Shown piece after piece: positions 6,657-48,801 of a DNA stretch of 54,972 nt. The stretch spans positions 1 through 54,972 of the forward strand of contig JWZX01003217.1 in assembly GCA_001275005.1 (NCBI GenBank). Reading direction: 5' to 3'. Below the pieces are notes generated by a model. It did no database searches and was not told the origin of the DNA. It saw nothing but the letters and a program-made list of their open reading frames with translations. Origin of the DNA: Chrysochromulina tobinii (lineage: Eukaryota). Numbering within the stretch: position 1 is the stretch's first letter; the number at the start of each line of letters is the position of its first letter. Both the position numbers and the translations under genes were made by a program.

Positions 6657-9600
6657 TCACCGACCACGCCCAGGCCACTTAAGCGGCTCGAGCACCGCGG
6701 CCTTGACTAGCTGCTGTGTCTCCTGCTGCTGCCGCTGCTGGTCCGGTGCGGGTGCAGCGCTCACGGGTGCAGCGTTCACCGGTGCGGCGCTCCCCCTCAC
6801 GGGTGCGATGCGCGTGGGATCGAGATCTGCGGGGGATCTGCGGGAGATCTGCGTGGGATCGAGATCTGCGCGCGCCTGCCGGTAGCCCACCTGGGCCGCG
6901 TAGGGGTCGAGGCCGGGCTGGAGGCGAGCAGCAGCAGCGCGACGGTACTCGGCCTCGCGCCGATACTCAGCCTGCTGCCGGACCGCTGCCTGCTCCTGCT
7001 CGAGGCGGAGTATCGCTAGCTGCCTCTCGAAGTGCTCGGCCTCGGCGCGCTCCGCCGCGCTCATGACGCGCGTGGCGCGCTGCACGGCCAGCAGGCTATC
7101 GAGCTGCTCACGCAACCCATCGAGTTGACGCTCCATCACCGGGACACGCGCCGTGTTGAGCGGATCGCGCGCCTCGTCGCCCAACATGGCGCCATGGGTG
7201 GGGCTGTTGAGCGCCGTGATGAGCGCGGATAGCCGCTTGAGCTCCGAGCAGATCTCGTGCAGCGAGATCTCGTGCAGCGTGGCCTGCACGGCGCCCATTG
7301 TCGACTCGAGGGCGCCCACGCGCTCCTCGAGTTCACTGAGCTCCTCGAGCTGCTGCGCATCGTCCGCCGCCGCCGCCGCCGCCGTGCGGCCCATCACGGC
7401 GCCCGGAACAGCGCCCATCACGGCGCCATCACCGTGCGGCGAGGCGGCTGGCCAGCGAGCGCGGGCGAAGACGCCACCTGGCATGCGACGAGTGGCCGCG
7501 GAGCGCGACGCTTCTCGTGCCGCGAGCTTCGACTCCAGTTGGTTAGGGTCGCGAATGCACTTCCGGCCGCAAGACAAGGGGGGAAGTGTCTTGCGGCCGT
7601 TGATGGTCGGAATGGCGCCGTCCCTGGGCACGGGGACGCCCGGGTGAGGAGGAGGTGCAGCCGCAGCGCCCGCGCCGTGCATGCCGCCAAACTCGAGCCG
7701 CGCCTCGAGCATCGCCGAGATCGACTCGAGCTTGTGCGTCACAAGCTGAGCCTCTTCCCGCGACAGCTGGCCGCGCGACGAGAGGCGCCCTGCCTCGCGC
7801 TCCGTGCGCTCCGCGATCGTGCGCTGCATCACGAGGAGCTTTTGGAGCGCGCGCCGCTCGACGGCATTGGCCTCGGGCCGCGTGAAGACGGTGCGCTTGT
7901 CCTGCTCAAAGGGGCGCATGCCGTTGGCCGAGTGCGCGCGGAAGAATCGGCGAGGCGTCTTCGAAATGTCCTCGAGCGACTGCTCACGCACAAGGCGCAG
8001 CCGCGTCTTGAGCTCGGGCGGCCCGGCGGCGGACGTCCCTGTCCTCGGCCCGTCCGCCTTCTCCCCGGAGGCGGCGCGCTGCTGCATCGCCTGTCGAAGG
8101 CGCTGCGCCTCAAGGCTCGCCTGCGCCACGCGCTTCCACGACGCACGGAGACGCGGCCACGTCATCACAAAGTCGATGGGCAGCACGAGCAGGATGAAGG
8201 GCGCGGGGATCGGGTGCTGGAGCAAGAAGACGGCCACCGACAGCGCCTTGTTCATATTCATGTGCTCACGCGACGCGTCGACGACCTCCGAGTAGCGTGC
8301 GTTGAACATGGCGATCAGCAAGTTGACGAAGAGGATGAGGACGAGCAGGCAGTAGAGCCACAGGAAGAAGGGCGCGACCAGGGCGCTGCCCGGGGAGCCG
8401 GCGATCTCGGCCGGGTTGAAGTAGCCAAAGGTAGCCCAAAAGGGGGCGAAGAAGGGCCCCGCGGCTGATACATCGAGCTCCTGGTTGAACCAAGGGTGGA
8501 GCGGACCCGCGCCATGCTCGGACTGGTAGTGGGGCAGCAGCAGGTTGAGCGCGACGCCGAAGCCCGATCCGATCACGATGACGAGCGGCAGCCAGAAGCG
8601 CAGATCGTACGCCATGCGAGAGGCGGCGATGATCAGCGCGCCGAGCGTCTCCGAGACGGAGAAGATCTCGGTCAGGCTGAAGAAGATGGGGAGCGCGGCG
8701 ATCGCGAGCAGCGTGCGCAGCACCTCGGTCGCCACCGTCCAACCGCAGTTGCCCGCTGGCGCGCCGTGCTGCCAGCCGCCGCCGTGCTGCAGGAAGTAGT
8801 GCTCGCTCTGCGACTGGCCGGGCAGGCTGTCATGGCGTGCACGGATCCGCCCGTCGGCGCGCAGGTCGAGGAACGCGATCAGATCGGTCGCCTCGGCTGC
8901 GGTCAGAGATGCAAAAGGGTCGCCACGCCGAAACCAGAGAGCGCAAGCGAAGAATGCGAGGAGCGAGACGATCGTGAGCGCATCAACCCACTTGTACACG
9001 CTGTACTTGCGACCCCATCCTTGGACCGTGGCGACGAAGAGGGCGAGCTGGTATGCCTTGGCGACGACCCAGATGAAGAGCACCAGGTGTGCCGTGTACA
9101 GGGGCTGGCAGAGCGGCAGAAAGGAGACCCACACGAAGAGGCCGGTGAACGCGTAGTGTGAGACCATGTCGAGCACGCGCTTGACGAGAGGGATTTGCAG
9201 CAGCCCAACGAGATGCTCGTACCGGTGCACCCGCATCGTGAGCACGTGCCCTTTTGCGGTAGGGTCGAACCCCTGCCGGGTGTGCCGTGCACCTTCCTCG
9301 GCGATGGGCCGGATGGGCCACCGGTATAGATCGTTGAGCTCCGTCCAGATCCACGGCCAGTGGATGGGGAAGAAGAGGAGCTGCCAGATCAGGCCGAGCA
9401 CGAGCGTGAGGGGCGCGCTATGCTTCGTGCGCAGCATGATGCGCCCGCACGCGGCCGAGCGCCCATTCCACATCTCCTCGACGAGCGCCTGGCAGTACCG
9501 ATGCGAGATGAACTTCTTGTTCTCAAGCTCGACCGCGACCTCGAAGAGGGACGAGCGCCGGTGGCGCGTACCCAGCTCGGCCGAGTCGCCCTCTGAGGTG

Positions 9601-12600
9601 AGGAGCAGCTTGCGTGCGGTCTCCTGGTCGGCCAACGTGTCGAGCAGCGCGACGGCGTTCGTCTCGAACCATTTCTCGAGGCTGACGAGCTCGTCCGACT
9701 CGGCCGAGAGGGAGACGCGCAGCTTGCGACAGACCTCCTGGCCGATCAGCGCCGCACGCAGCGGAGACACAGTGCGCTCCCAGATGACCTTGACGAACCT
9801 GGCCGCGCCGCAGCAGATGCCCCACACCAGCAAGTCGAAGGCTCGGACGGTCCTCTGGCGCGCGGCGTAGTACTCGAAGCCCACAATGTGCTGGCGCAGC
9901 ATGAGCACATGCTCCTCGCGCCACGGCGTCGTGTCGGGCAGGTCAAACGGCAGGCGCGCACCCAGAGCCGAGGCGGACATGCCAAGTTCTCCAAAGAGCG
10001 TGGAGAGGCTCACTTCGGACACCTTCGCGCCATACTGCAGCAGCAGGTCCACGATGCGCACGTCGAACGAAGGGTCGGTCACGCGCAGCAGCGCCTCCTG
10101 CAGCGCCTCCTGCACCATCTCCGCACGCGCGGCCGCCGAAGTTCCATACGAGCTCGTATGCATCAGCAGCTGATGGAGCACATCGTACCGCCCCCAGCGC
10201 GCCACCAGCGCGACGCCGAGCGCGTGCCCGCCCTTGCCGCTCACCATGTTACTCGACGCGCGCATGAAATCATTGCACGCAGCCTGAAGCAAGAGGCGCG
10301 ACACCTCCAGCCTGATGAGCTTGACGTCCTCCTCGCTCAGTGCATTGACGTCCTCCTTCAGGGCGAGCGCACGCAGCTTCTCAATGCACTCGTCGACCGA
10401 GTTGCTCCTCTCGAGGGCCACCCAGCGCCCACGCACGAGCACATCGACCCCGAGCTTGCCTCCGAACGAGCCACTGCGGCTCCTGTCGCGCCTGTCGCGC
10501 CCAGGCTCGTCACGCTGTGGTGAGCACGTGCATGCAAGACAGGCCATCAGTGGCAATCAACGCACCTGTCGCGCCCATGCTCGTCACGCCCGCCCCGCTT
10601 GCTCTCATGCTCCGCCGCGTGGCAGCTCAGCCGCAGCTCGAGCGTCGTGCCGAGCGATCGAATCGACAGCTGGCGCATCGTGTCGATAGGCTGGTGGCGC
10701 AGCAGCCGCTGCTTCACTGCTTCACAGGCCCACTGCTGCTGTGACGCGTACAGCGTCAGATTCTCGTCGACGTCGCGCCAGCACACACGACTCTCCACTT
10801 TAGGGCTCTCCTCTTTAGCCGTCATCCGCTGAAGCACCGAGATGCGCATGGATAAACCGCGCCAGTTGATCGCCGACGCCGGTGTCTCCGTCGAGATCCA
10901 TAGCTCGTCCTCCGGCTCGTCGTCGTCCGGCTCCTCGTCCGAGTTGGTCGGACCGCCTGTGCGAGCGGCAGCCCCCTTTCGAGAGCTCATCGAGCGCAAG
11001 GTCCTGCCCATGAACGATCTGGCGGACCTGATGCCCATGAACGATCTGGCGGACCGTGACTCGCTCCCCGTGTGTGAGTACGACTGCAGGCGAATCTTGG
11101 AGGAGAGCTCTCGCGACATGTGGAAGTGGACTGCGGTCGTCTCGATCCACGCGTGGTCCGTGTTGCGTGGGTCGTCCACGTAGCCGCGGTACACAATCCG
11201 CGCATCCTCGCTCGAGAGCTCATCGGGCAGGTTGAAGAGCTCGTCCAGGAGCAGGCGCGTCCGATCCCGCGGCTGGCCACGGTAGTTCGCTGCGCGCTGC
11301 GCGAGGCCGGCTTGCGGCTCAAAGGCCTGGCGCAGCGCCTGCGCCAGCGTCTCGCCCTCGCGGATCAGCCGCCCTGGGAGCGATCGGCCATGCCGCGCGC
11401 TGTGGTGAGCACTTGCATGCAAGACAGGTCATCAGTGGCAATCAACGCACCTGGCAGCGACCACTCATCGGAGCCATCAGTACGCTTGACGACCACCACC
11501 TGCAGCTGGTTCGTCGTTGGGTGTAGCCGCGTGACGATCGGGTCGGCCGCGTGGTTGGGTCCCCACTTGCCCAGCAGCCCGCGGCCCGCGAGCCCCGTCC
11601 GCCCTCGCGGGTTGAGCGGTCGGCCACGCCCACCGTTGGGCTCGAGACTTGCGTTGCCCTCTTCGAACTGGAGGGGCCCCTCGAAGGTGAGCCGGCGCTC
11701 GATCCGCTTGGACGTGAGAGCAAACGTCTCCGCGGAGCGCGGGTCGAGTAGCCGTTTGGCGCTGCCCCTCGGGCTGACGACGGGGCTGGACACCTCCTGT
11801 ATCAAATTCTCCATAGATACATGTCGCTGTCTCGGGTCTTCCGGGTCGGCCCAGCGCTGCTGACGCGTCCGGCTGCGAAAGTTGTCGGTCACAGTCGGGT
11901 CGGTGTAGTCCGCCGGAGCGTATCCAGGGAAGGGCACGGACCAAGGCACCTTCTCGTCGGGCACTTGGACGCGGGCCGGATACCTATCGGGCGCGGGTCG
12001 TACGCGCGCTCGCTCGTGCGGCGCGATCTTCTCCGCCACTCGATCGACAAGCTGCCGGTGGCTCGCGTACAGGTTCGCATACCGGTCCTCGGACAGCGGG
12101 TTGATGTCGAGCCAGATGGCGCGCGTGGCGTCATCGCCTGCGCCGAGCGCGAGCTTGTCTCCTGCGAGGCGAGATTGGGGGCGAGATTAGACGGAGATTG
12201 CAGGCGAGATTGGAGGCGAGATTGGGCCGAGATTGGAGGCGAGAGGCGCACCGATCTCGGGCGGGCAGTGGAAGTGGAATGCGGTCGTCTCGATCCACGC
12301 GTGGTCCGTCGTCCGCGGGTCGTCCACGTAGCCGCGGTACACCACGGTGCCGCCCGAGGCGAAGAGCCTACCGGTCGCCTCTTCAAAGAGTCTCTGCCCT
12401 TCTGGGTCGGGAATGTTGCCCACCTCCGCCCTGAACTCGCGCTGGACCGTCTCTGACACCGTCTCTCCCTCGTCCACCATACCTCCAGGAAGGGCCCACA
12501 CGCCCGGCTGGTCGGCACGCTCGATCGCAACCATCTGCAGCTGGTTCGTCGTTGGGTGTAGCCGCGTGACGATCGGGTCGGCCGCGTGGTTGGGTCCCCA

Positions 12601-14604
12601 CTTGCCCAGCAGCCCGCGGCCCGCGAGCCCCGTCCGTCCTCGCGGGTTGAGCGGCAGTCGCTTCTCATGATCCCAGAGCAGCACGCCTTTCGTCTCGTAT
12701 GTCTTGCGCGAGAGTACCTCGGCGATGAGATCGCTGCTCAGTGGCGCGGGCGGGTCGGCCCACTTAGCCTTCGCATGCGCACGTCGCTCTTCGCGCGTGG
12801 CCCCGTGGTTGCAGAACTTGGTCAGCACCGGGTGCTCGTACGTGGGCGGGTGGTAGCCTCCCGCCGCTGTCCAGTCGGCCTCCCATGGCACAAGACCCTC
12901 GTCCGCAATGGGCAGCCGGCGCACGCCTTCGGGGCAGTCCGCGCCCACGTAACGGTCGCGATCGCGCGCCTTAAGGTGCACGGGCGGCTTGGCGGGTTGC
13001 TCGAGGGAGCCCACTGGCTGCGGAACCTTGACGGCGCGGCGCGCCAGCTTGCGCCGCTCGATGTCAGCGTCAGTGCGCAGCTTGCAGCTGGCGACGACCG
13101 CGTTGAGGATGGAAGTCTCGAGAGACTCGGCTTTGGCCATTGAGAAGACGATCATCAGGTCACGCAACGTGCGCTTGTCGAGCGTGTGCGGCGCGGGCGT
13201 GTGCGAGAGTGAGGGCAGCAGCAGTCGCACCGCCTCCTCCACCTTCTCCCGTGGCACCTTGAGCACGTCCCACTGCTCAAGCTGCTCGTGTAGCAGAGTC
13301 GCCCAAAGCTCGACCGACCCCGGCTCTCGCTCCGGATGCTCCTGAACCTTGAGGGCGAAGTCCGCGAGGGCGCGTGCACAGCCGCGTGACTCGCGCACGA
13401 GCACGCAAGGCGTGTGGTTGCTCCAGGTCGTCAGGATCGTATTGAACGTGCCGCGCCCGCCCTGGACCATGAGGAGCACCCATCAGAGGTCATCAGGGTC
13501 ATCCGAGGTCATCAGAGGAGCGCTTACCTGGATAACGAGGAGCACTGAGGGCACCATGAGCTTCTCGACGAGCCGCCGCTCCACCTGGCCACGTAGCTCG
13601 ATCTCAGCACCCCATGCTGGAGCGCGTGCCCCCGGGTCGTCGACGAGGATGAAGTGCGAGTGGTTCATGTCCAGCGCCGACGACGCGCTCGAGTTCTTGA
13701 TCCGCTTGATGTACGGCAGCAGTGGCGGCGGCAGGCGCTCCTCGGGCTTCGCCTGCCGCAGGCTCTCCTGGTTCGTCACGCACCCGAGCGGGGCGATGCC
13801 GATGAGCGGGGTGGCCCATGCGTGTCCCTCGGCGCGCACGTTGGTAGTGGTCCGACTGCGCAACGCGCGCCCAACCAGCTCCATCACGCCCGTGTCCATG
13901 CCGCCCGTGATTACCCACGCGCGCGTCGAGGACGCCGCCGAGTCGATGCCGTCGCGCAGCATATTCTCAAGTCGTGGCTCAAGGTCCATCGCCTGCGCTG
14001 AGCCGCTTACAGTGAGGAGCACGGATGGCACCTGGATGCGCCAGTAAGACAGTAACAGCTTGACAATTGCATCCGCATCCGTGCGCGTCGACACGCCTGC
14101 GAAGCGTGCAGGCTCGTCCATCAGCTCGTCATCGAAAGAGAAGAAGAGGCGGCCGATCTGGTGGATGCCCGTCGCGTAGAGGTTCCCTACGTCGGCATTG
14201 CTCTCTTGCCAGCGCTCTTCGCGGCGGTCCTCCACCTGTTGCTCGCACTGGCTCGACCAGCACCAGCTCTGTGCCAGCAGTGGCTTGGATTGGCTTAGCG
14301 AGTTGTGCGATGCTGGCGCTGTTCGCGGTGAGCTGCCGGCTGGTGTCGCGTCGCCGGAGCTATCTATGCCGAGCAACCTGCCCCCTCCAGCGGTCTTCTT
14401 ATATGAGCCGTCGGGCAACGCACCGTCGGCGAATCTAGTGTGCGTGTCCATGCCGGACGTGGCGCCATCTTCTCTATCAACGTCTCCCGAATCCCTGCCG
14501 GCTTTACTGATTTCTTTGGCAGGCAGACTCGACAGGTTGAGCGGCAGCGCCGGCGTGTTGGTGCGAGGGTGCACGCGGGACGAGTCCCCTCGCTGCCAAT
14601 GCAT
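6657..14604 (-). CDS. TRPM-like cation channel: SLOG - NUDT9-like x2 - MHR3/4 - six-TM ion-transport domain - coiled coil
   Basis: SLOG motifs AWVITGGMDTGVMELVG, LIGIAPLG, LDMNHSHFILVD and VIQGG. Two copies of PLNPRGRTGLAGRGLLGKWGPNHAADPIVTR...YRGYVDDPR.TDHAWIET. MHR4-like LLVWGI..IWE..PLRAAL..KFISHRYCQALVEEMWNG. S6 motif LFVNLLIAMF. ORFs join in frame via introns 13462-13527, 12162-12251, 11374-11450 and 10492-10565. Start codon and extreme C-terminus are uncertain. Confidence 0.85.
10492..10565 (-). mobile_element. Introner-like intron, copy B (74 nt)
   Basis: Same core with 2 mismatches, followed by a 23-nt copy (1 mismatch) of the upstream exon end that supplies the AG acceptor; alternative in-frame acceptor at 10483. 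Confidence 0.7.
11374..11450 (-). mobile_element. Introner-like intron, copy A (77 nt)
   Basis: Core GTGCGTTGATTGCCACTGATGACCTGTCTTGCATGCAAGTGCTCACCACAGCG is near-identical to the intron at 10492-10565; removal restores SLPG-RLIREGET. Confidence 0.7.
12162..12251 (-). other. GT-AG intron (90 nt) built of a CAATCTCGCC minisatellite
   Basis: G|GTGCGCC...CTCGCAG|GA; removal restores NUDT9 C-terminal LGAGDDA..IWLDI...LYASH. Confidence 0.85.
13462..13527 (-). other. GT-AG intron (66 nt) with CTGATGACC filler repeats; its 3' end copies the upstream exon
   Basis: GTGCTCCTCGTTATCCAG|GTAAGC...GTGCTCCTCATGGTCCAG|GGC; contains an in-frame TGA. Confidence 0.85.
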
Positions 14605-14923
14605 GTAACGCGGCGCTCCGTGTTCCGACACGCTGGGCGCGCTTGCCTGTGCGACGGTTTTACGCAAACACGGTCGTTTTCACGCGTGTCGTCTGACGTG
14701 TGAACGTTCACAGCGGCGACAAGCGGAAGTGTTCTCGCTCGCCTTTATGACATAAAATTCCCTGGAAGTCGCTCCCGCATTAGACGAGCTGCGCCAATTA
14801 CTCTACAAGTATTCAATTAGTTTGATTCCCTGAAAGACGCTACTCGCAATAGGCGAGCCGCGCCTTCTTTTGTATTTCCTGGATGTCGCTCTCGGCAAAC
14901 CAGCGTGATCTGATACCTCTATG

Positions 14924-17098
14924 TCACGCCTCAAGCTTGCCCATGAGGCGTGTTGACGGCGCGCCTCTTCTTGTTGACGGGCCGCCACTTCTGCATGTTG
15001 TGATCGCGGTGCTTGCATTGGCAGCAGCCAACGTTTGGCTCTCGCGTTGCTGCACCACACGGCGCTGCTTGTCGAGTTCGAGTCGGCCCGCTTCCTTCCT
15101 GATATTCATCGATTCACGCATCATGTAGATGGCCATTTCCTTGAAGAGTGTCCAGGTTTTGACTGCCTTGTACGCGTTCGGATAGGCGTGGATGAGGTTC
15201 ACAAAGTCCCTCTTGCTGACGGAACTTGTGTGCACGTATGTGTTCGTCACCGCGCGCAGCGGCTTGGCTTTTGTCAGCAACAGATCGGGCCAGCCCCACG
15301 TATCTCCCGGACCGAGCAAACTGGATCTCGTGGATGAGATGCGGTAGTGGACGCTGCCCTGTGAGATGAAGTAGAGGCACTTACCCGGGGGCAATTCCTT
15401 GGGCCCGAAGACGACGGGGCGCATGCTCAGCACTATCTGGCACAGGAAGCCCTTGCGCTCGGCCTCCATCACTCTTTGAAAGCACCCGGAGACGAAGCAC
15501 GGGATCCGCAAGAGCCAGTGCTTGTTGAGCTCCCACGTCACCCTCTGCTTGAGCATGGGCGACAGCTGCTCGATCGCGGCCATGCGCGAATCGTACTTCA
15601 AGACGTCGATCGTGTGGAAGTAGTAGCGGCGTAGCTCACGGGAAATTTCCTTGGAGAGCTTGTACTGGTCGCAGAAGCGGTTTAGCGCGTCGAGCCCCTC
15701 GGTGAACCGTTTGCGGTCTGGGTCGGCCTGCGTGAGCGCGACAATCAAATTGCCGAAGATAACCGTCCACGCGAAGACGCCAAAGAGGAGCATGACGAGT
15801 AGCAGAATGTACTCGGTCGGCTTGAACTGCACCTCCCACTCCGGTTGCAGCGCAGCCGCGTCGGTAGGAGAGGTCGGAGACGTCGATGAGGAGGTCGGAG
15901 AGGTCGAGTAGAAGGGCTTGTAGGGGCCCATTGCCGGCGTGATCGAGTAGCCGGTGAGCAGCTGCACAGACCAGAAGAGGCAGTGGAGGTACCGATAGGC
16001 GACGTCCACACACTCGGCGAGCACCCTACCCTGTGAGTCGGTGAGCAGGCTTCCGTCGGCCTCGACGCCCGCGGGCTTGCAATAGCCAAAGGTGCCGAGC
16101 CACGTGTCGAGAGGTGATTCGAAAAATGTGGTCCAGATGGCAACAATGCAAGCGTATGCGTGCGTGAGCATGCACGTCTGGGCGAGAAGGCTGATGAGCG
16201 TGACGGTCACTGAGTTGAGCGAGATGCGCTCGCGAGCGCGCTGGAACACACGCGAGGCGCGCATGAGCCGCAACAGCTTGACCAAGCGCAGCGCGCGCAA
16301 TGTGCGCAGCGCCTTGGCGCCGCCCGCATCGGGCCCTTCATTCGAAATGACCGGCAGAATGTCAAAAATGGACGGAAAGATCGAGATGACGTCGAGGAAG
16401 AACCAGCCGCGCACGTAGTTGCGTGCAAGCGCACGCGGATTCATCTCCCAGGCGCTCTTGCCTACAGGATCGCCCGCCTTCGGAACGATTGGCGTCATGA
16501 TGAAGAATGCGAAGATCACATCTAGGATGAAGATGCAATCGACGATACGGTTGATCACAAAGAGCGGTTCGTCGGCGCGAGTGGGTGGAGGTAGGAAACC
16601 GACCTCGAACGGCGTCAGCGCCGCAGTATACATGAGCGCAAGCCCGCCGATCACATCCCAGGCGGGAAAGATGGTCATGTTACTCAGCACCTTGAGGGCC
16701 ACTTGGTTCAAGACGTTCCTGGCGTTGATTTCTGCCCTGTCAAGCACCCGAGTCCCTTGTGGCCTACGGGAACGGATGTCGAGGCGCTTGCGTGCCACCA
16801 TTCTCCTTCGCTGCTCTCTCACAAAGGTGCCAGTCGGGTCAATTATGTACCAAGGAACCTTCTGAACACCGTCCAGCTCCTTGTTGATCAGCTTTGCTTC
16901 GATGACATCAGACATGCTCCGCTCTTCCTTCGGCACCAACGCTTGAGGCACCTCTTCCTCGTCAAGCTGCGCCTTCGCGTCCGGCTGCGAATCAGGCTCA
17001 GTCACAGGGCCAAACAGTGCCGTACTGTTTGTGCTTCTGTTTTGAGTTCCTGCCGTGCTCGACCCTCTTGCAAGGGATACCTTACAACCTCTCCTCAT
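14924..17098 (-). CDS. Cyclic-nucleotide-binding-domain ion channel (KCNH/CNG/HCN superfamily)
   Basis: S1-S3 WD...Y.A..TPFEVGF, IVDCIFILD, NYVRGWFFLDVIS; S4 LRTLRALRLVKLLRLMR; C-linker LSKEISRELRRYY; CNBD LYFISQGSV..LGPGD. Confidence 0.85.
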   Translation of the reverse strand: MRRGCKVSLARGSSTAGTQNRSTNSTALFGPVTEPDSQPDAKAQLDEEEVPQALVPKEERSMSDVIEAKLINKELDGVQKVPWYIIDPTGTFVREQRRRMVARKRLDIRSRRPQGTRVLDRAEINARNVLNQVALKVLSNMTIFPAWDVIGGLALMYTAALTPFEVGFLPPPTRADEPLFVINRIVDCIFILDVIFAFFIMTPIVPKAGDPVGKSAWEMNPRALARNYVRGWFFLDVISIFPSIFDILPVISNEGPDAGGAKALRTLRALRLVKLLRLMRASRVFQRARERISLNSVTVTLISLLAQTCMLTHAYACIVAIWTTFFESPLDTWLGTFGYCKPAGVEADGSLLTDSQGRVLAECVDVAYRYLHCLFWSVQLLTGYSITPAMGPYKPFYSTSPTSSSTSPTSPTDAAALQPEWEVQFKPTEYILLLVMLLFGVFAWTVIFGNLIVALTQADPDRKRFTEGLDALNRFCDQYKLSKEISRELRRYYFHTIDVLKYDSRMAAIEQLSPMLKQRVTWELNKHWLLRIPCFVSGCFQRVMEAERKGFLCQIVLSMRPVVFGPKELPPGKCLYFISQGSVHYRISSTRSSLLGPGDTWGWPDLLLTKAKPLRAVTNTYVHTSSVSKRDFVNLIHAYPNAYKAVKTWTLFKEMAIYMMRESMNIRKEAGRLELDKQRRVVQQRESQTLAAANASTAITTCRSGGPSTRRGAPSTRLMGKLEA

Positions 17099-17617
17099 TC
17101 GCCGACAGCTAGAAGCTGGTCACTAAAATACCTGATGGTGACCAGGGCTTTTGGCCGGAAGAGCGGAAGACAGGCCTGGACGGTCCGGATGATCGGAGCG
17201 GCCCAAAGGATCGGAGCGGCCCAAAGGAAAAGTGCCAAAACACGACGAAGCGTCTCGAGGCTCAACCTCCGTACCGGTATACCGGTAAAAAGACACCGGG
17301 GTAGCCCACCGGTCTAGACCGGTAAGACCGGTAACGCGACGTGCTGGTATGAAAACGACTAGGTGAGGCTGCTCTACGATGGTGGCGAGACGCGAGGCGC
17401 GCATTTCCATGTTATCGCACACGCGTCCCCCCGAAGCTTCCTCTCACGTACAATACCACGTTTCTAACATCTCCACCGGGTCTCCAACGCCATCCAAGCC
17501 GCCGTAGAATGGTTGCCGGTACCCAGCATGTCGTAACGTTCACAAACTCGTTCACACACCATCCCGTCCGTCGGCCGTGCAGCGCGGCCTCCTGCTGCAG
17601 AGGGCAACTTCCGGGAC

Positions 17618-43949: not shown

Positions 43950-45167
43950 TCAGACCTCCTGTGGCACGGCGGCGCCGACCGTGGCACCGACTGCCGCCAA
44001 AGGCAATGCCTCCTGATGAGCATCCTCAGCCACATCGTCCACCGAAAGCTCTCGGATAGACGCCACGTCGGTGGTCAGGCATGCCGGGTTGACGCCCGCT
44101 TTGTGCGCAGCGAGGAGGCCGAGCGCTTCCATGTAGTTATTAACGACTACCACGCCAGAGGCGCGGAGCGCGGCCGCCGAGACATCGAGCGCGCACGTAT
44201 TTTCCTCGACAGCGACGACCAGCGAGCGCGTACCGAGCCGCGCCATCACCGCGGCCCCTCCGCACGCGCCAGCAGGCACGACGATGGCATCGATGTCGTC
44301 GCTCCACAGGTCGCCTGGCAACGGCCGCTCGGACCCATCGAGCAGCGCGGGCGCGCGAGCAAGGTTCACGAGCACGCACGGGAGGAACGTGTGCCCCAGC
44401 TCCTCGGCGCACGTGCGCGGCGAGAGCTCCGGCTCCAGATCGATCGGCCCGAGGGCCGGTGCATGCGCACATGGCAGCTGCAGCTCCTTTGTGATCAGGT
44501 GCGAGATGACGGCCTCGACGCCGCCCACAGAGTCGACACCGCTGCCAGCACGGTACTCGGCCAGCATCTCCTCGTCCTCATCGTCGGGCATGCGCGTGAC
44601 CACCGCAATCGCCGTGCAGCCTGCATCCCGAAGACGCCGTGCGGCCTCGAGGAGCAAATCGGGGCGGCCGAGCGTGCCCCAGCTTGCGCCCGCCGCAGAG
44701 AGTCGAAGCTCCACCTCAAGGGGCGCCGCTGTTGTCGCGTACGCTGCAACGTTGACGCCGAGGGTCGCGCGCGTAGCATCAGCGGCCTGCAAGTGGCGCA
44801 AGCGCAACTCGGGCTCGATGGCAGCGTCAAGCAGGAGCCCCACGCGCTGGGAAGTCACAGGCCTCAGCCCCCACCGACCGGCGGCGAACTCGTCGAGGGC
44901 ATATCCCTCGACATACTGCAGCGCAGGGTGGGGCCAGTAGAGCATCGCGCCGTTCATCACATTGGGATGGGTGATTACCCGGTCTGCCACGCCTGTAAAA
45001 GCACGTGCCACAGGCAGTGCGTCGCCCGCGAATCCGCCTATGGCGGCACCGATGCCTGTAGGTACAACCAGAACTGCCGTATATGGCGACGACGTTAGGC
45101 GTGGTGGCGCTCGCTCAAGTGGAGCGCGCAAGGCCACTGTCATCAGAAAGCAAAGCCCCGCAGCCAT
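43950..45167 (-). CDS. DUF3326 family protein (cyanobacterial/plastid type)
   Basis: VLVVPTGIGAAIGGFAGDALPVAR, ITHPNVMNGA.LYW, YVEGYALDEF, GGVEAVISHL, AEELGHTFLPCVL. Confidence 0.8.
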   Translation of the reverse strand: MAAGLCFLMTVALRAPLERAPPRLTSSPYTAVLVVPTGIGAAIGGFAGDALPVARAFTGVADRVITHPNVMNGAMLYWPHPALQYVEGYALDEFAAGRWGLRPVTSQRVGLLLDAAIEPELRLRHLQAADATRATLGVNVAAYATTAAPLEVELRLSAAGASWGTLGRPDLLLEAARRLRDAGCTAIAVVTRMPDDEDEEMLAEYRAGSGVDSVGGVEAVISHLITKELQLPCAHAPALGPIDLEPELSPRTCAEELGHTFLPCVLVNLARAPALLDGSERPLPGDLWSDDIDAIVVPAGACGGAAVMARLGTRSLVVAVEENTCALDVSAAALRASGVVVVNNYMEALGLLAAHKAGVNPACLTTDVASIRELSVDDVAEDAHQEALPLAAVGATVGAAVPQEV

Positions 45168-45399
45168 GTTAGGTTGGAGCTCTGATGAAACTTCATCATC
45201 ACCTCTCCCCCCCCCCCCGTCACGCATTCAACTGAGCATTCAACATACGGATAACACAATAAGCATGGTTCAACCTTTCACCTACGGATGGCGGACGCGC
45301 ATACAGACCCGTAGACAGGATCACATAACATTACAGAGCGAGAGACTTCTACGAGTACGATCGCCGGAACTTACATGTACTTGTAAGCTTCTAAGCTTC

Positions 45400-46635: not shown

Positions 46636-46842
46636 TTTCATAAAAACTCGTCACAAATGATGATGTCGGGGGGAAGAGATTGCTGAAAAGGGCTCAAAAA
46701 GGGCACAGCGAGAGTTTCTGTCAGGGGCCCTGGAGGGTGTGTGAGGGTGTGAGGGGTGGTTTTTTTCGTGCTGAACGAGGGAAAAAGTATGAATTTTGTG
46801 TTTCCATGAAGAGCACAGAGGCGGCCGCGGAAGAGCGTACAG

Positions 46843-48801
46843 ATGATGAGTGCAAGTAGCAGCGTGCAGGGAGGGAGCGCTCCACGACGCAACAGCGACC
46901 CCGACAGTGGCCCATACGTCAAGTCTCAGGAGCACTTGCTCACTGCGACTGACTACAATCCACAGCCTACAGCGGTGCCGCCACCCATTGCTGCCAATGC
47001 CGGCACACTTGGTGTTCGCCACGTCCTGTGCATCATCGGCCTACCCGAGCGCGGTAAGCCATATATAGCTCGACGCCTTCAATTGTATTTATCTTTCTTT
47101 CACGGTGCGGACGTGCGAGTCTTCAACATCGCCGACTATGCCGTTGGTCCGAGCGGCTGCGACGAGAATGCCGAGACGCTGCTGGATGATGTGCGCAAGT
47201 TCATGGAGAAGCGTAACGAAGCAGCCTCGAACAACATGGATGTGCCCAGCCGCATCGGGTCTGCCAGCGTATCCGAAGACCCCACCGAGACTCCCCTGTC
47301 TCACCAGTACCTCATCGATGAGGCAGACCGCCGCCGCAAGAATGTCGACTCGGGCAAGGTCGCCATCATGATGTCCACGGACGCGAACGCGACATTCAAG
47401 GAGAAGTGGTCCGGTACATCCAAGGAGCGGCGCCAGTGGCTCGCGACCACACTCGCGCAGGATCGGGTGATGGGCGCCAAACTCATCTTCATCGAGGTCA
47501 TCGTCAACCAGCCGCATCTGATCGAGGCCAACATCCGGGCCAAGCGGCGCGCCCAGGGCCTGGGTGAGACCTCGGCAGCGGCCATGCGCGAACACCACAT
47601 CAAGGTGAAGCACTACGCGCGCATGTACGTGACGTTGCAGGACGACGGCTCGGAAGACGACCTTTCGTACATCAAGCTGTACAACTACGGCGGCAAGGTT
47701 ATTACCAACCGCATGCACGGCTACCTGCGCATGCGCATCGCGCAGTTCCTCACGACGGTGCACACGACGCCGCACGTCATCTACCTGTCGCGCCACGGCC
47801 AATCCGAGTACAATGTGATGGGCAAGATTGGCGGGAACCCGCCGCTCTCCACAGCCGGCGAGGAGTACGCTCGTCGGCTGGGCAAGTGGGTGCCCGACAA
47901 CATCTGCAGGACGCCCGATGGCCGGCCTATCAAGTCACGGTTGTGGACGTCGTCGCTGCAGCGCACCATTCTGACGGCAGAGCACATCCCGCACCCGCTC
48001 ATCCCGTGCCGCGAGCTTTTCGATGCCTACGGCAACGAGATACACTCCAGTTCTAGCCTAGTTCTCGCCGACGGATGGCGGGGCCACCCATCCTCGCCCA
48101 CAGCGGACGGAGTTGTCAGCTTCGGGATCATGCCCACGCACCCGGCCACGCTCGCAGCGACGCTCGCAGCGGACGCTTCTCGTGGCTTGGGCAAGATGCC
48201 CACGCCTCCATCGCCGCTGCCGTCCAGGATGCCGTCCGAGGCAACTCTGGCCGATCCGCCGGCCCTCAAGCTCGAGCACAGCGAGAGTGGGCCTGCTTCT
48301 TCCGAGCCCCCTACAGAGCCTTCCGAGCTGGACGGCGTCTTGCACAGTGAGGAGCTTTGGGAGCAGATGTCGCCGCGCGTCTACCGTAATCTCGACGAGA
48401 TCTTCGCGGGCGAGTACGAGGGGATGAGCTACGAGGATATCGAGCGGCTCATGCCGGAGGAGGCCTCTCTGCGCTCCATGGATAAGATTGGGTACAGGTA
48501 CCCTCGAGGGGAGTCGTACTTTGACATCCTCGCCCGCCTGGACCCGCTCGTGCACGAGATGGAGTCCTATCGGGAGCCTGTGCTCATCGTCTCACACCAG
48601 GCCGTGCTGCGTGTGCTGTACGCCTACCTGATGGCCAAGCCACGCAGCTCGGCCCCCAAGATCGAGATCCCGCTGCATACAATCATGAAGATCACTTACG
48701 ACGGCTGGAACCCTCCGTATGAAGAGCGCGTCTACCTAGGGCCGGAGCCACTGTCCGAGTCACCAGACAAGCCCGCGAACGACGGCCAGAAGAAGCTGTG
48801 A
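46843..48801 (+). CDS. 6-phosphofructo-2-kinase/fructose-2,6-bisphosphatase family protein
   Basis: IGLPERGKPYIA, LSYIK, IYLSRHGQS, WTSSLQRT, LDEI.AG, RYPRGESY, VSHQAVLR. Confidence 0.9.
   Translation: MMSASSSVQGGSAPRRNSDPDSGPYVKSQEHLLTATDYNPQPTAVPPPIAANAGTLGVRHVLCIIGLPERGKPYIARRLQLYLSFFHGADVRVFNIADYAVGPSGCDENAETLLDDVRKFMEKRNEAASNNMDVPSRIGSASVSEDPTETPLSHQYLIDEADRRRKNVDSGKVAIMMSTDANATFKEKWSGTSKERRQWLATTLAQDRVMGAKLIFIEVIVNQPHLIEANIRAKRRAQGLGETSAAAMREHHIKVKHYARMYVTLQDDGSEDDLSYIKLYNYGGKVITNRMHGYLRMRIAQFLTTVHTTPHVIYLSRHGQSEYNVMGKIGGNPPLSTAGEEYARRLGKWVPDNICRTPDGRPIKSRLWTSSLQRTILTAEHIPHPLIPCRELFDAYGNEIHSSSSLVLADGWRGHPSSPTADGVVSFGIMPTHPATLAATLAADASRGLGKMPTPPSPLPSRMPSEATLADPPALKLEHSESGPASSEPPTEPSELDGVLHSEELWEQMSPRVYRNLDEIFAGEYEGMSYEDIERLMPEEASLRSMDKIGYRYPRGESYFDILARLDPLVHEMESYREPVLIVSHQAVLRVLYAYLMAKPRSSAPKIEIPLHTIMKITYDGWNPPYEERVYLGPEPLSESPDKPANDGQKKL

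Follow-up and report, generated by a model that had tools for sequence, protein, structure and literature searches.

The closest described relatives of the channel considered here are the TRPM2 chanzymes srTRPM2 of a choanoflagellate (PDB 8sr7) and nvTRPM2 of Nematostella (6co7), which combine SLOG and the MHR1-4 regions with a six-helix channel, a coiled coil and, after it, a single C-terminal NUDT9-type domain (NUDT9-H). Vertebrate TRPM2 (human 6mix/6puo, zebrafish 6drj) pairs an ADP-ribose-binding SLOG cleft with a catalytically dead NUDT9 domain, and TRPS (soromelastatin), an animal family, likewise carries SLOG and a C-terminal Nudix domain on a TRP channel (PMC7306681). Wherever the accessible parts of the published accounts state its position, the Nudix domain is C-terminal (PMC6461439, 10.1101/2023.03.16.533055, 10.64898/2026.06.15.732245, PMC4580454, PMC13143021, PMC7306681, 10.1101/2024.03.18.584035); one choanoflagellate TRPW protein has both SLOG and Nudix, in an order that those parts do not state. 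In the window analyzed here, the whole 54,972-nucleotide (nt) stretch of contig JWZX01003217.1 from the haptophyte Chrysochromulina tobinii, positions 6657-14604 of the minus strand encode a TRPM2-like channel that shares with srTRPM2 and nvTRPM2 the SLOG/MHR1-4 region, the six-helix channel, the ADP-ribose residues of SLOG and, in one copy, a catalytic-type NUDT9 domain; however, it carries two NUDT9 copies between MHR2 and MHR3 and none in the tail, and its calcium site is mostly lost.

The coding span comprises five exons (14604-13528, 13461-12252, 12161-11451, 11373-10566, and 10491-6657) that join in one frame of 7,641 nt, encoding 2,546 amino acids (aa); all features of the gene given below lie on the minus strand. 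Domain borders were drawn from profiles built on 28 canonical channels, and the MHR and TRP-box labels follow general usage for TRPM structures. Exon 1 (13528-14604) encodes a low-complexity N-terminus and most of SLOG, whose MHR1-2 ADP-ribose cleft spans 14106-13335 (191 bits, aa 167-402). The last strand and helix of MHR2 (13081-13164, approximate borders; hhalign probability 93%) form the upstream edge of the insertion site, followed by NUDT9-1 (12981-12027, 250 bits, aa 520-808, spanning intron 2), in which the catalytic residues are intact, and by the pseudoenzyme-like NUDT9-2 (12021-10711, 202+11 bits, aa 810-1221, spanning intron 3), which carries two long inserted loops. The start of MHR3 (9981-10223; hhalign probability 96%) forms the downstream edge and is separated from NUDT9-2 by a lineage-specific spacer of ~140 aa, compared with ~6 aa in the homologue P0002. 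Further downstream are MHR4 (9836-9368, aa 1488-1644), the transmembrane part (aa 1689-2045) with helices S1-S4 (8591-9233), which include the S2-S3 calcium site with one of its four ligands, and S5, pore, S6 and TRP helix (8165-8576, from profile and PDB matches), and a C-terminal tail of 501 aa (6657-8164) that has no NUDT9 domain and probably forms a coiled coil near 7197-7367. The first-pass annotation of this DNA, made from its letters without database searches, had described SLOG, two NUDT9 domains, MHR3/4 and the channel in one frame, and the profiles reproduce its coordinates within ~20 nt.

The proposed scans with hidden Markov models, run in Pfam on the separate exon frames, detected LSDAT_euk (4e-38) and NUDIX, the latter for copy 1 only (4e-11), and left Ion_trans and the TRPM2-like family below the cut-offs. 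The six-helix TRP domain with pore and TRP helix is identified by phmmer matches to nvTRPM2, TRPC3, and TRPM3, together with hydropathy, and the N-terminal SLOG (LSDAT_euk) and MHR3/4 by Pfam, PDB, profile, and structure matches. Human NUDT9 (1q33), a soluble single-domain ADP-ribose pyrophosphatase with which the copies share the full cap-plus-core fold, is the best PDB sequence match to exons 2 and 3; its phmmer match to exon 3 (6.5e-25) supports NUDT9-2, although this exon also includes the end of NUDT9-1. A blastp self-comparison gave no internal repeat, whereas the profiles did. In the tails, a NUDT9 signal was absent from all 11 tested members of the internal-NUDT9 family and present in five out of five canonical controls. 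The earlier statement of a duplicated module away from the tail is borne out.

The previously proposed insertion between SLOG and MHR4 can be narrowed. In canonical channels, a short loop connects the end of MHR2 with the start of MHR3. The profile alignments place the two NUDT9-type domains within this loop, after the last helix of MHR2 and before the first one of MHR3, and thus as an insertion into an otherwise complete MHR1-4. The structure prediction that had been suggested was carried out on the compact homologue P0002 (residues 49-1006, AlphaFold2 (AF2) with a 21-row alignment) and gave a mean predicted local distance difference test score (pLDDT) of 71.6 and a predicted template modelling score of 0.61. 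The superposition on nvTRPM2 residues 94-482 aligned 369 residues, which lie on both sides of the NUDT9 insert and are spread over model positions 1-952 (Z 38.3, root-mean-square deviation 3.2 Å), against 291 residues with an MHR1/2-only crystal structure. Thus, the MHR1-3 core is predicted to fold normally and to close around the insert. A single-sequence AF2 model of exon 2 (pLDDT 37) was uninformative.

The transcript evidence comes from contigs of six metatranscriptome runs that hold 86-91% of the sequence words of the window. The spliced frame contains a single stop, which is terminal, and all four introns are GT-AG: intron 1 (13462-13527, 66 nt, repeat-derived, with very high DNA depth), intron 2 (12162-12251, 90 nt), intron 3 (11374-11450, 77 nt), and intron 4 (10492-10565, 74 nt, the last 24 nt of which duplicate the upstream exon end). 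Spliced joins were found in the RNA contigs of five out of six runs for intron 1, all six for intron 2, two for intron 3, and all six for intron 4, which marks the join between NUDT9-2 and the channel; neither of two DNA runs contained a spliced join at any of the four introns. In four of the six RNA runs, contigs extend upstream of exon 1 to 14641-14647. Jointly the RNA contigs take in three stretches, from SLOG into the first half of NUDT9-1, from the second half of NUDT9-1 into the first half of NUDT9-2, and from NUDT9-2 into the channel; they break because a 72-nt block (12565-12636 and 11530-11601, recorded without strand) is identical in both NUDT9 copies. A separate assembly (L001) is collinear over 19.5 kb at 99.94% identity, and in three relatives with 88-89% identity (P0154, P0157, and P0163) NUDT9-2 runs into the channel in one frame without any counterpart of intron 4. 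The five exons form one expressed gene with one reading frame, as the annotation of one spliced gene with four introns had it.

The two NUDT9 copies differ at the residues of the active site. In srTRPM2 numbering, with roles as assigned in the accessible text of 10.1101/2023.03.16.533055, where only E1386 and E1390 are named as metal ligands, NUDT9-1 retains eight out of eight positions (W1264, D1330, R1360, E1386, E1390, D1426, R1428, and D1460) and has Met at the F1372 position, as in human NUDT9. NUDT9-2 retains W1264, D1330, R1360, D1426, and R1428; Ala stands at E1386, Gln at E1390, and no match to D1460 was found, which amounts to a loss of the metal ligands and the catalytic base. Judged by these residues, NUDT9-1 likely cleaves ADP-ribose and NUDT9-2 likely only binds it. 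The same division is seen in the family: 10 of 13 copy-1 units have both metal glutamates (one of these units is weakly aligned), 10 of the 11 copy-2 protein units that could be scored lack E1386, and of two further loci L041 lacks E1386 in copy 2, whereas L033 keeps both glutamates there. The binding residues of NUDT9-2 are kept across deeply diverged members while the metal ligands are lost, which suggests selection for binding. Between the copies, 127 of 259 aligned residues are identical overall. The identity is patchy, with runs of identical codons set among diverged stretches that carry synonymous substitutions, a pattern compatible with an old duplication and later gene conversion; the 72-nt block is likely one such conversion patch. 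A very recent tandem duplication was considered and rejected, since the copies have diverged outside the identical patches and each pairs with its counterpart in P0001.

Further residues bear on the earlier suggestion of an ADP-ribose-sensing channel. SLOG has Trp at the srTRPM2 F268 position and Arg at the R275 position, and the aromatic residue and the Arg are also kept in most rows of the internal-NUDT9 family. The NUDT9 copies are not equivalent, and the S2-S3 calcium site (nvTRPM2 E893, Q896, N918, and D921) reads Leu, Phe, Lys, and Asp, with one of four ligands kept. A study of 89 TRPM2 sequences reports that all of them conserve this site completely (10.1101/2024.03.18.584035). Within the family it is similarly lost in P0163, P0122, and P0123 and complete in P0128, P0005, and P0126. 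The canonical filter glutamate is replaced in all 11 family rows with a pore, and the TRP-box Trp is altered in the C. tobinii gene. On these residues, calcium co-activation of the C. tobinii channel appears doubtful.

The annotation knew of no description of the architecture. The C. tobinii gene is not the only occurrence: 17 other sequence clusters show all or part of the domain order. Among the matches listed for exon 2, 12 of 120 have NUDT9 directly after MHR2 or before MHR3 (P0001-P0007, P0030, P0037, P0048, P0054, and P0093), and five of seven matches to the channel part have NUDT9 sequence upstream of MHR3/4. Many homologue records are fragments; the whole order is nevertheless found in single protein records (P0128/P0002, P0147, and P0126, with a partial SLOG in P0126) and on five of 80 loci (L019, L020, L033, L041, and L042). 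No homologue longer than 2,235 aa was found among 3,075 candidates, a negative that is weak evidence.

In a quick tree of the channel part, built from such channels without an outgroup or NUDT9-less protist channels, 12 rows with the internal-NUDT9 arrangement form one clade (Shimodaira-Hasegawa-like approximate likelihood-ratio test, SH-aLRT, 98), apart from 10 haptophyte-type channels with C-terminal NUDT9 (SH-aLRT 100) and from 14 holozoan channels. In the NUDT9 tree, from which 26 of 85 rows had been dropped beforehand, mostly as long-branch, short or near-duplicate, the internal copies fall into a non-holozoan group (SH-aLRT 99) together with haptophyte-type C-terminal domains and NUDT9 fusions to other proteins. 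Its backbone is unsupported, branching inside the non-holozoan group is not separated, and the data neither establish nor reject that the internal copies are monophyletic (approximately unbiased test, p-AU 0.67). The haptophyte Prymnesium parvum encodes TRPM2-like channels with an ordinary C-terminal NUDT9, the hypothetical proteins AB1Y20_016041 (P0008) and AB1Y20_022976 (P0086), which among named proteins match exon 2 best (50% over 55% of the exon) and whose NUDT9 domains belong to the same non-holozoan group. Such canonical haptophyte-type channels differ from the C. tobinii gene by their single C-terminal NUDT9, a full calcium site in most rows, an acidic filter, and a separate channel clade. 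The permuted and duplicated architecture is thus upheld, but its description as independently assembled is unproven, because haptophytes also have channels with C-terminal NUDT9 and the NUDT9 tree cannot separate a relocation from the C-terminus from the capture of a free NUDT9, either of which could have produced the internal copies.

Since, of two TRPM2-defining features, the C-terminal NUDT9-H is absent and the calcium site is mostly lost, we do not file the gene as TRPM2; it represents an apparently undescribed architectural variant of TRPM2-like chanzymes that is common to a small clade. We propose one expressed gene for a TRPM2-like channel that SLOG gates, with copy 1 hydrolyzing and copy 2 binding and signaling, a reading that as a whole has in our estimate slightly more than an even chance of being correct. 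Binding of ADP-ribose at the SLOG cleft would open a tetrameric cation channel in which each subunit has three nucleotide sites; NUDT9-1 would hydrolyze ADP-ribose locally in a Mg-dependent manner and so limit opening; NUDT9-2 would bind ADP-ribose without cleavage and pass the signal allosterically to MHR3/4; and little or no calcium co-dependence would be expected in this sub-lineage. All of these functional steps are carried over by analogy from work on TRPM2. In srTRPM2, a rotation of MHR3/4 transmits the signal to the gate, according to the accessible text of 10.1101/2023.03.16.533055.

Several observations weigh against this proposal. The RNA evidence consists of contigs rather than reads, the six runs may represent one campaign, and no single contig covers the whole gene. 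NUDT9-1 has Ala at the E1389 position, the second Nudix-box glutamate that canonical enzymes keep, and thus departs from the full canonical REUXEE box (consensus from PMC6461439); in the accessible text of the same source, double mutants of nvTRPM2 at the Nudix-box site are nearly inactive. The division between the copies has exceptions, with a glutamate lacking in copy 1 of P0006, P0048, and P0093 and both glutamates present in copy 2 of L033 and perhaps of P0007. The alterations of the calcium site, the TRP-box Trp, and the filter glutamate imply that gating may differ from that of TRPM2, and the ~140-aa spacer between NUDT9-2 and MHR3 weakens the case for direct coupling. In the P0002 model, pLDDT is low in the linkers that attach the NUDT9 domains, and because AF2 knows TRPM folds, the closed core may in part reflect what the program has learned.

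Three other explanations compete with the proposed one. That the SLOG/Nudix part and the channel are separate genes, joined through misassembly at repeated sequence or through an incorrect gene model, is very unlikely: DNA and RNA contigs do break at the 72-nt block and at the repeat-derived introns, a paralogous NUDT9 gene (L051-L054) carries part of that block, and prokaryote-style gene calls give the pieces as separate proteins, but intron 4 is spliced in every RNA run with no internal stop in the frame, the second assembly agrees, and intron-free homologues hold the whole order in one frame. Moreover, the 72-nt block has about twice the DNA depth of its flanks (148 vs. 72-83 in run X1), and the segment between the two blocks is at single depth and appears in spliced form in the RNA contigs. 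Misassembly of the SLOG/Nudix part onto the channel was rejected.

The main rival grants the gene and disputes the role of its NUDT9 domains: ADP-ribose would gate through SLOG, copy 1 would only clear ligand, and copy 2 would be a structural spacer without a gating role. Published work lends it some weight, since in nvTRPM2 gating and catalysis are uncoupled (PMC6461439) and the NUDT9-H of srTRPM2 is semi-independent (10.1101/2023.03.16.533055), as do the poorly predicted linkers, the 140-aa spacer and long loops of NUDT9-2, and the occurrence of NUDT9 in proteins of other kinds, among them OSCA-like channels, a MATE transporter, and an ART. However, NUDT9-2 keeps its adenine, ribose, and phosphate contacts across diverged members while its metal ligands are lost, and it adjoins MHR3 in P0002, so that we hold this rival to be rather unlikely. 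It is unlikely, too, that some other stimulus (another nucleotide, temperature, force, or lipid) gates the channel while the nucleotide modules modulate it or serve metabolism. All known TRPM channels have SLOG and most are not known to be gated by ADP-ribose, and the loss of three of the four calcium ligands, the TRP-box Trp, and the filter glutamate marks a divergence from TRPM2; nevertheless, the gene and most family rows retain the SLOG aromatic residue and Arg, and two domains of the ADP-ribose type lie beside the SLOG cleft.

Returning to the enzyme-plus-sensor channel, we tentatively extend it to the clade, as a scenario that is possible rather than probable: a protist lineage would have moved NUDT9 into the MHR2/MHR3 hinge and divided its roles between an enzyme and a pseudoenzyme that acts as sensor, giving a second, independent enzyme-to-sensor switch and an ADP-ribose chanzyme that is independent of calcium and has three nucleotide sites in each subunit. 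If so, the enzyme-to-sensor switch of vertebrate TRPM2 was invented twice, and a chanzyme with this history is available in a culturable alga. With vertebrate TRPM2, the C. tobinii gene shares a catalytically dead NUDT9 and an ADP-ribose-type SLOG cleft, but its dead copy arose separately, through duplication and other substitutions, beside a probably active twin and at another position. The coupling of NUDT9-H to the TRPM2 gate and the change from enzyme to sensor are, as far as is known, studied only with C-terminal domains. In the internal-NUDT9 family, the module sits elsewhere in the chain, an intact copy adjoins a disabled one, and the calcium site is present in some members and missing from others, so that the effects of position, catalysis, and calcium dependence can be tested one by one. 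The family thus offers a natural test of how NUDT9 domains control channel opening, and haptophytes appear, from their encoded proteins, to have TRPM2-like ADP-ribose channels in two architectures.

A full-text literature search returned no paper on this domain order, as the annotation had supposed, although supplements and subscription papers lay outside its scope and a listing in some architecture table is possible. The same search returned nothing joining TRPM2, NUDT9, and haptophytes and nothing on TRP channels in Chrysochromulina; the main text of the C. tobinii genome paper contains neither "transient receptor" nor "ADP-ribose," and the accessible parts of papers on TRPM evolution, which are metazoan or holozoan in scope, do not mention haptophyte TRPM2-like channels. 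Apparently undescribed, the order is shared by a clade of homologues.

Further arrangements were observed among the relatives. P0021 (1,943 aa), from the same channel clade, has a single catalytic-type NUDT9 earlier in the chain, inside MHR2 and before its last helix, and only a low-complexity linker at the usual insertion site of the family; this second internal position is known from one sequence, which groups weakly with the canonical channels in the SLOG tree (three of 24 rows left out). P0005, P0126, and L019 are family members with a C-terminal calpain domain III, and in P0127 the channel is followed by a catalytic calpain domain (Peptidase_C2), which suggests channel-protease fusions. 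In the set P0010, P0027, P0024, P0023, P0028, and P0008, NUDT9 is also joined to OSCA/TMEM63-like channels, where the Nudix boxes are degenerate, to a MATE transporter, to an ART domain, and to an S9 peptidase, and the canonical P. parvum channel has an N-terminal PH domain. NUDT9 acts as a mobile module in these protists. At L039 (5563-8507), two closely spaced NUDT9-type frames without channel domains stand beside a RING-finger gene.

The first 53 nt of intron 3 form an element that intron 4 shares (96% identical), and a 90% copy of it occurs at L041 9997-10040, in the homologous gene of L041-L043; near intron 3 the DNA depth is more than 100-fold above background. These two introns look like an introner-type mobile intron family, and intron 1 is likewise repeat-derived. 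One RNA contig (X18) extends into intron 3 (window 11374-11423). Retention of this intron would give a stop in NUDT9-2 and a soluble SLOG-NUDT9 product; alternatively, the contig may represent pre-mRNA or DNA. The further NUDT9 gene of L051-L054, which has part of the 72-nt block (match ~10000-10560 in L054), matches a loose end of the RNA contigs and is therefore expressed in the same runs.

Among the neighboring genes in the window, the one adjacent upstream on the same strand (14924-17119) encodes a channel with Ion_trans and cyclic-nucleotide-binding domains and ends ~320 nt before the start of the TRPM2-like gene. A DUF3326 gene lies at 43950-45227 on the minus strand and a 6-phosphofructo-2-kinase/phosphatase gene at 46810-48801 on the plus strand; the other neighbors are ordinary (kinase-RCC1, EF-hand, TFIIA, LIM, and MutS).

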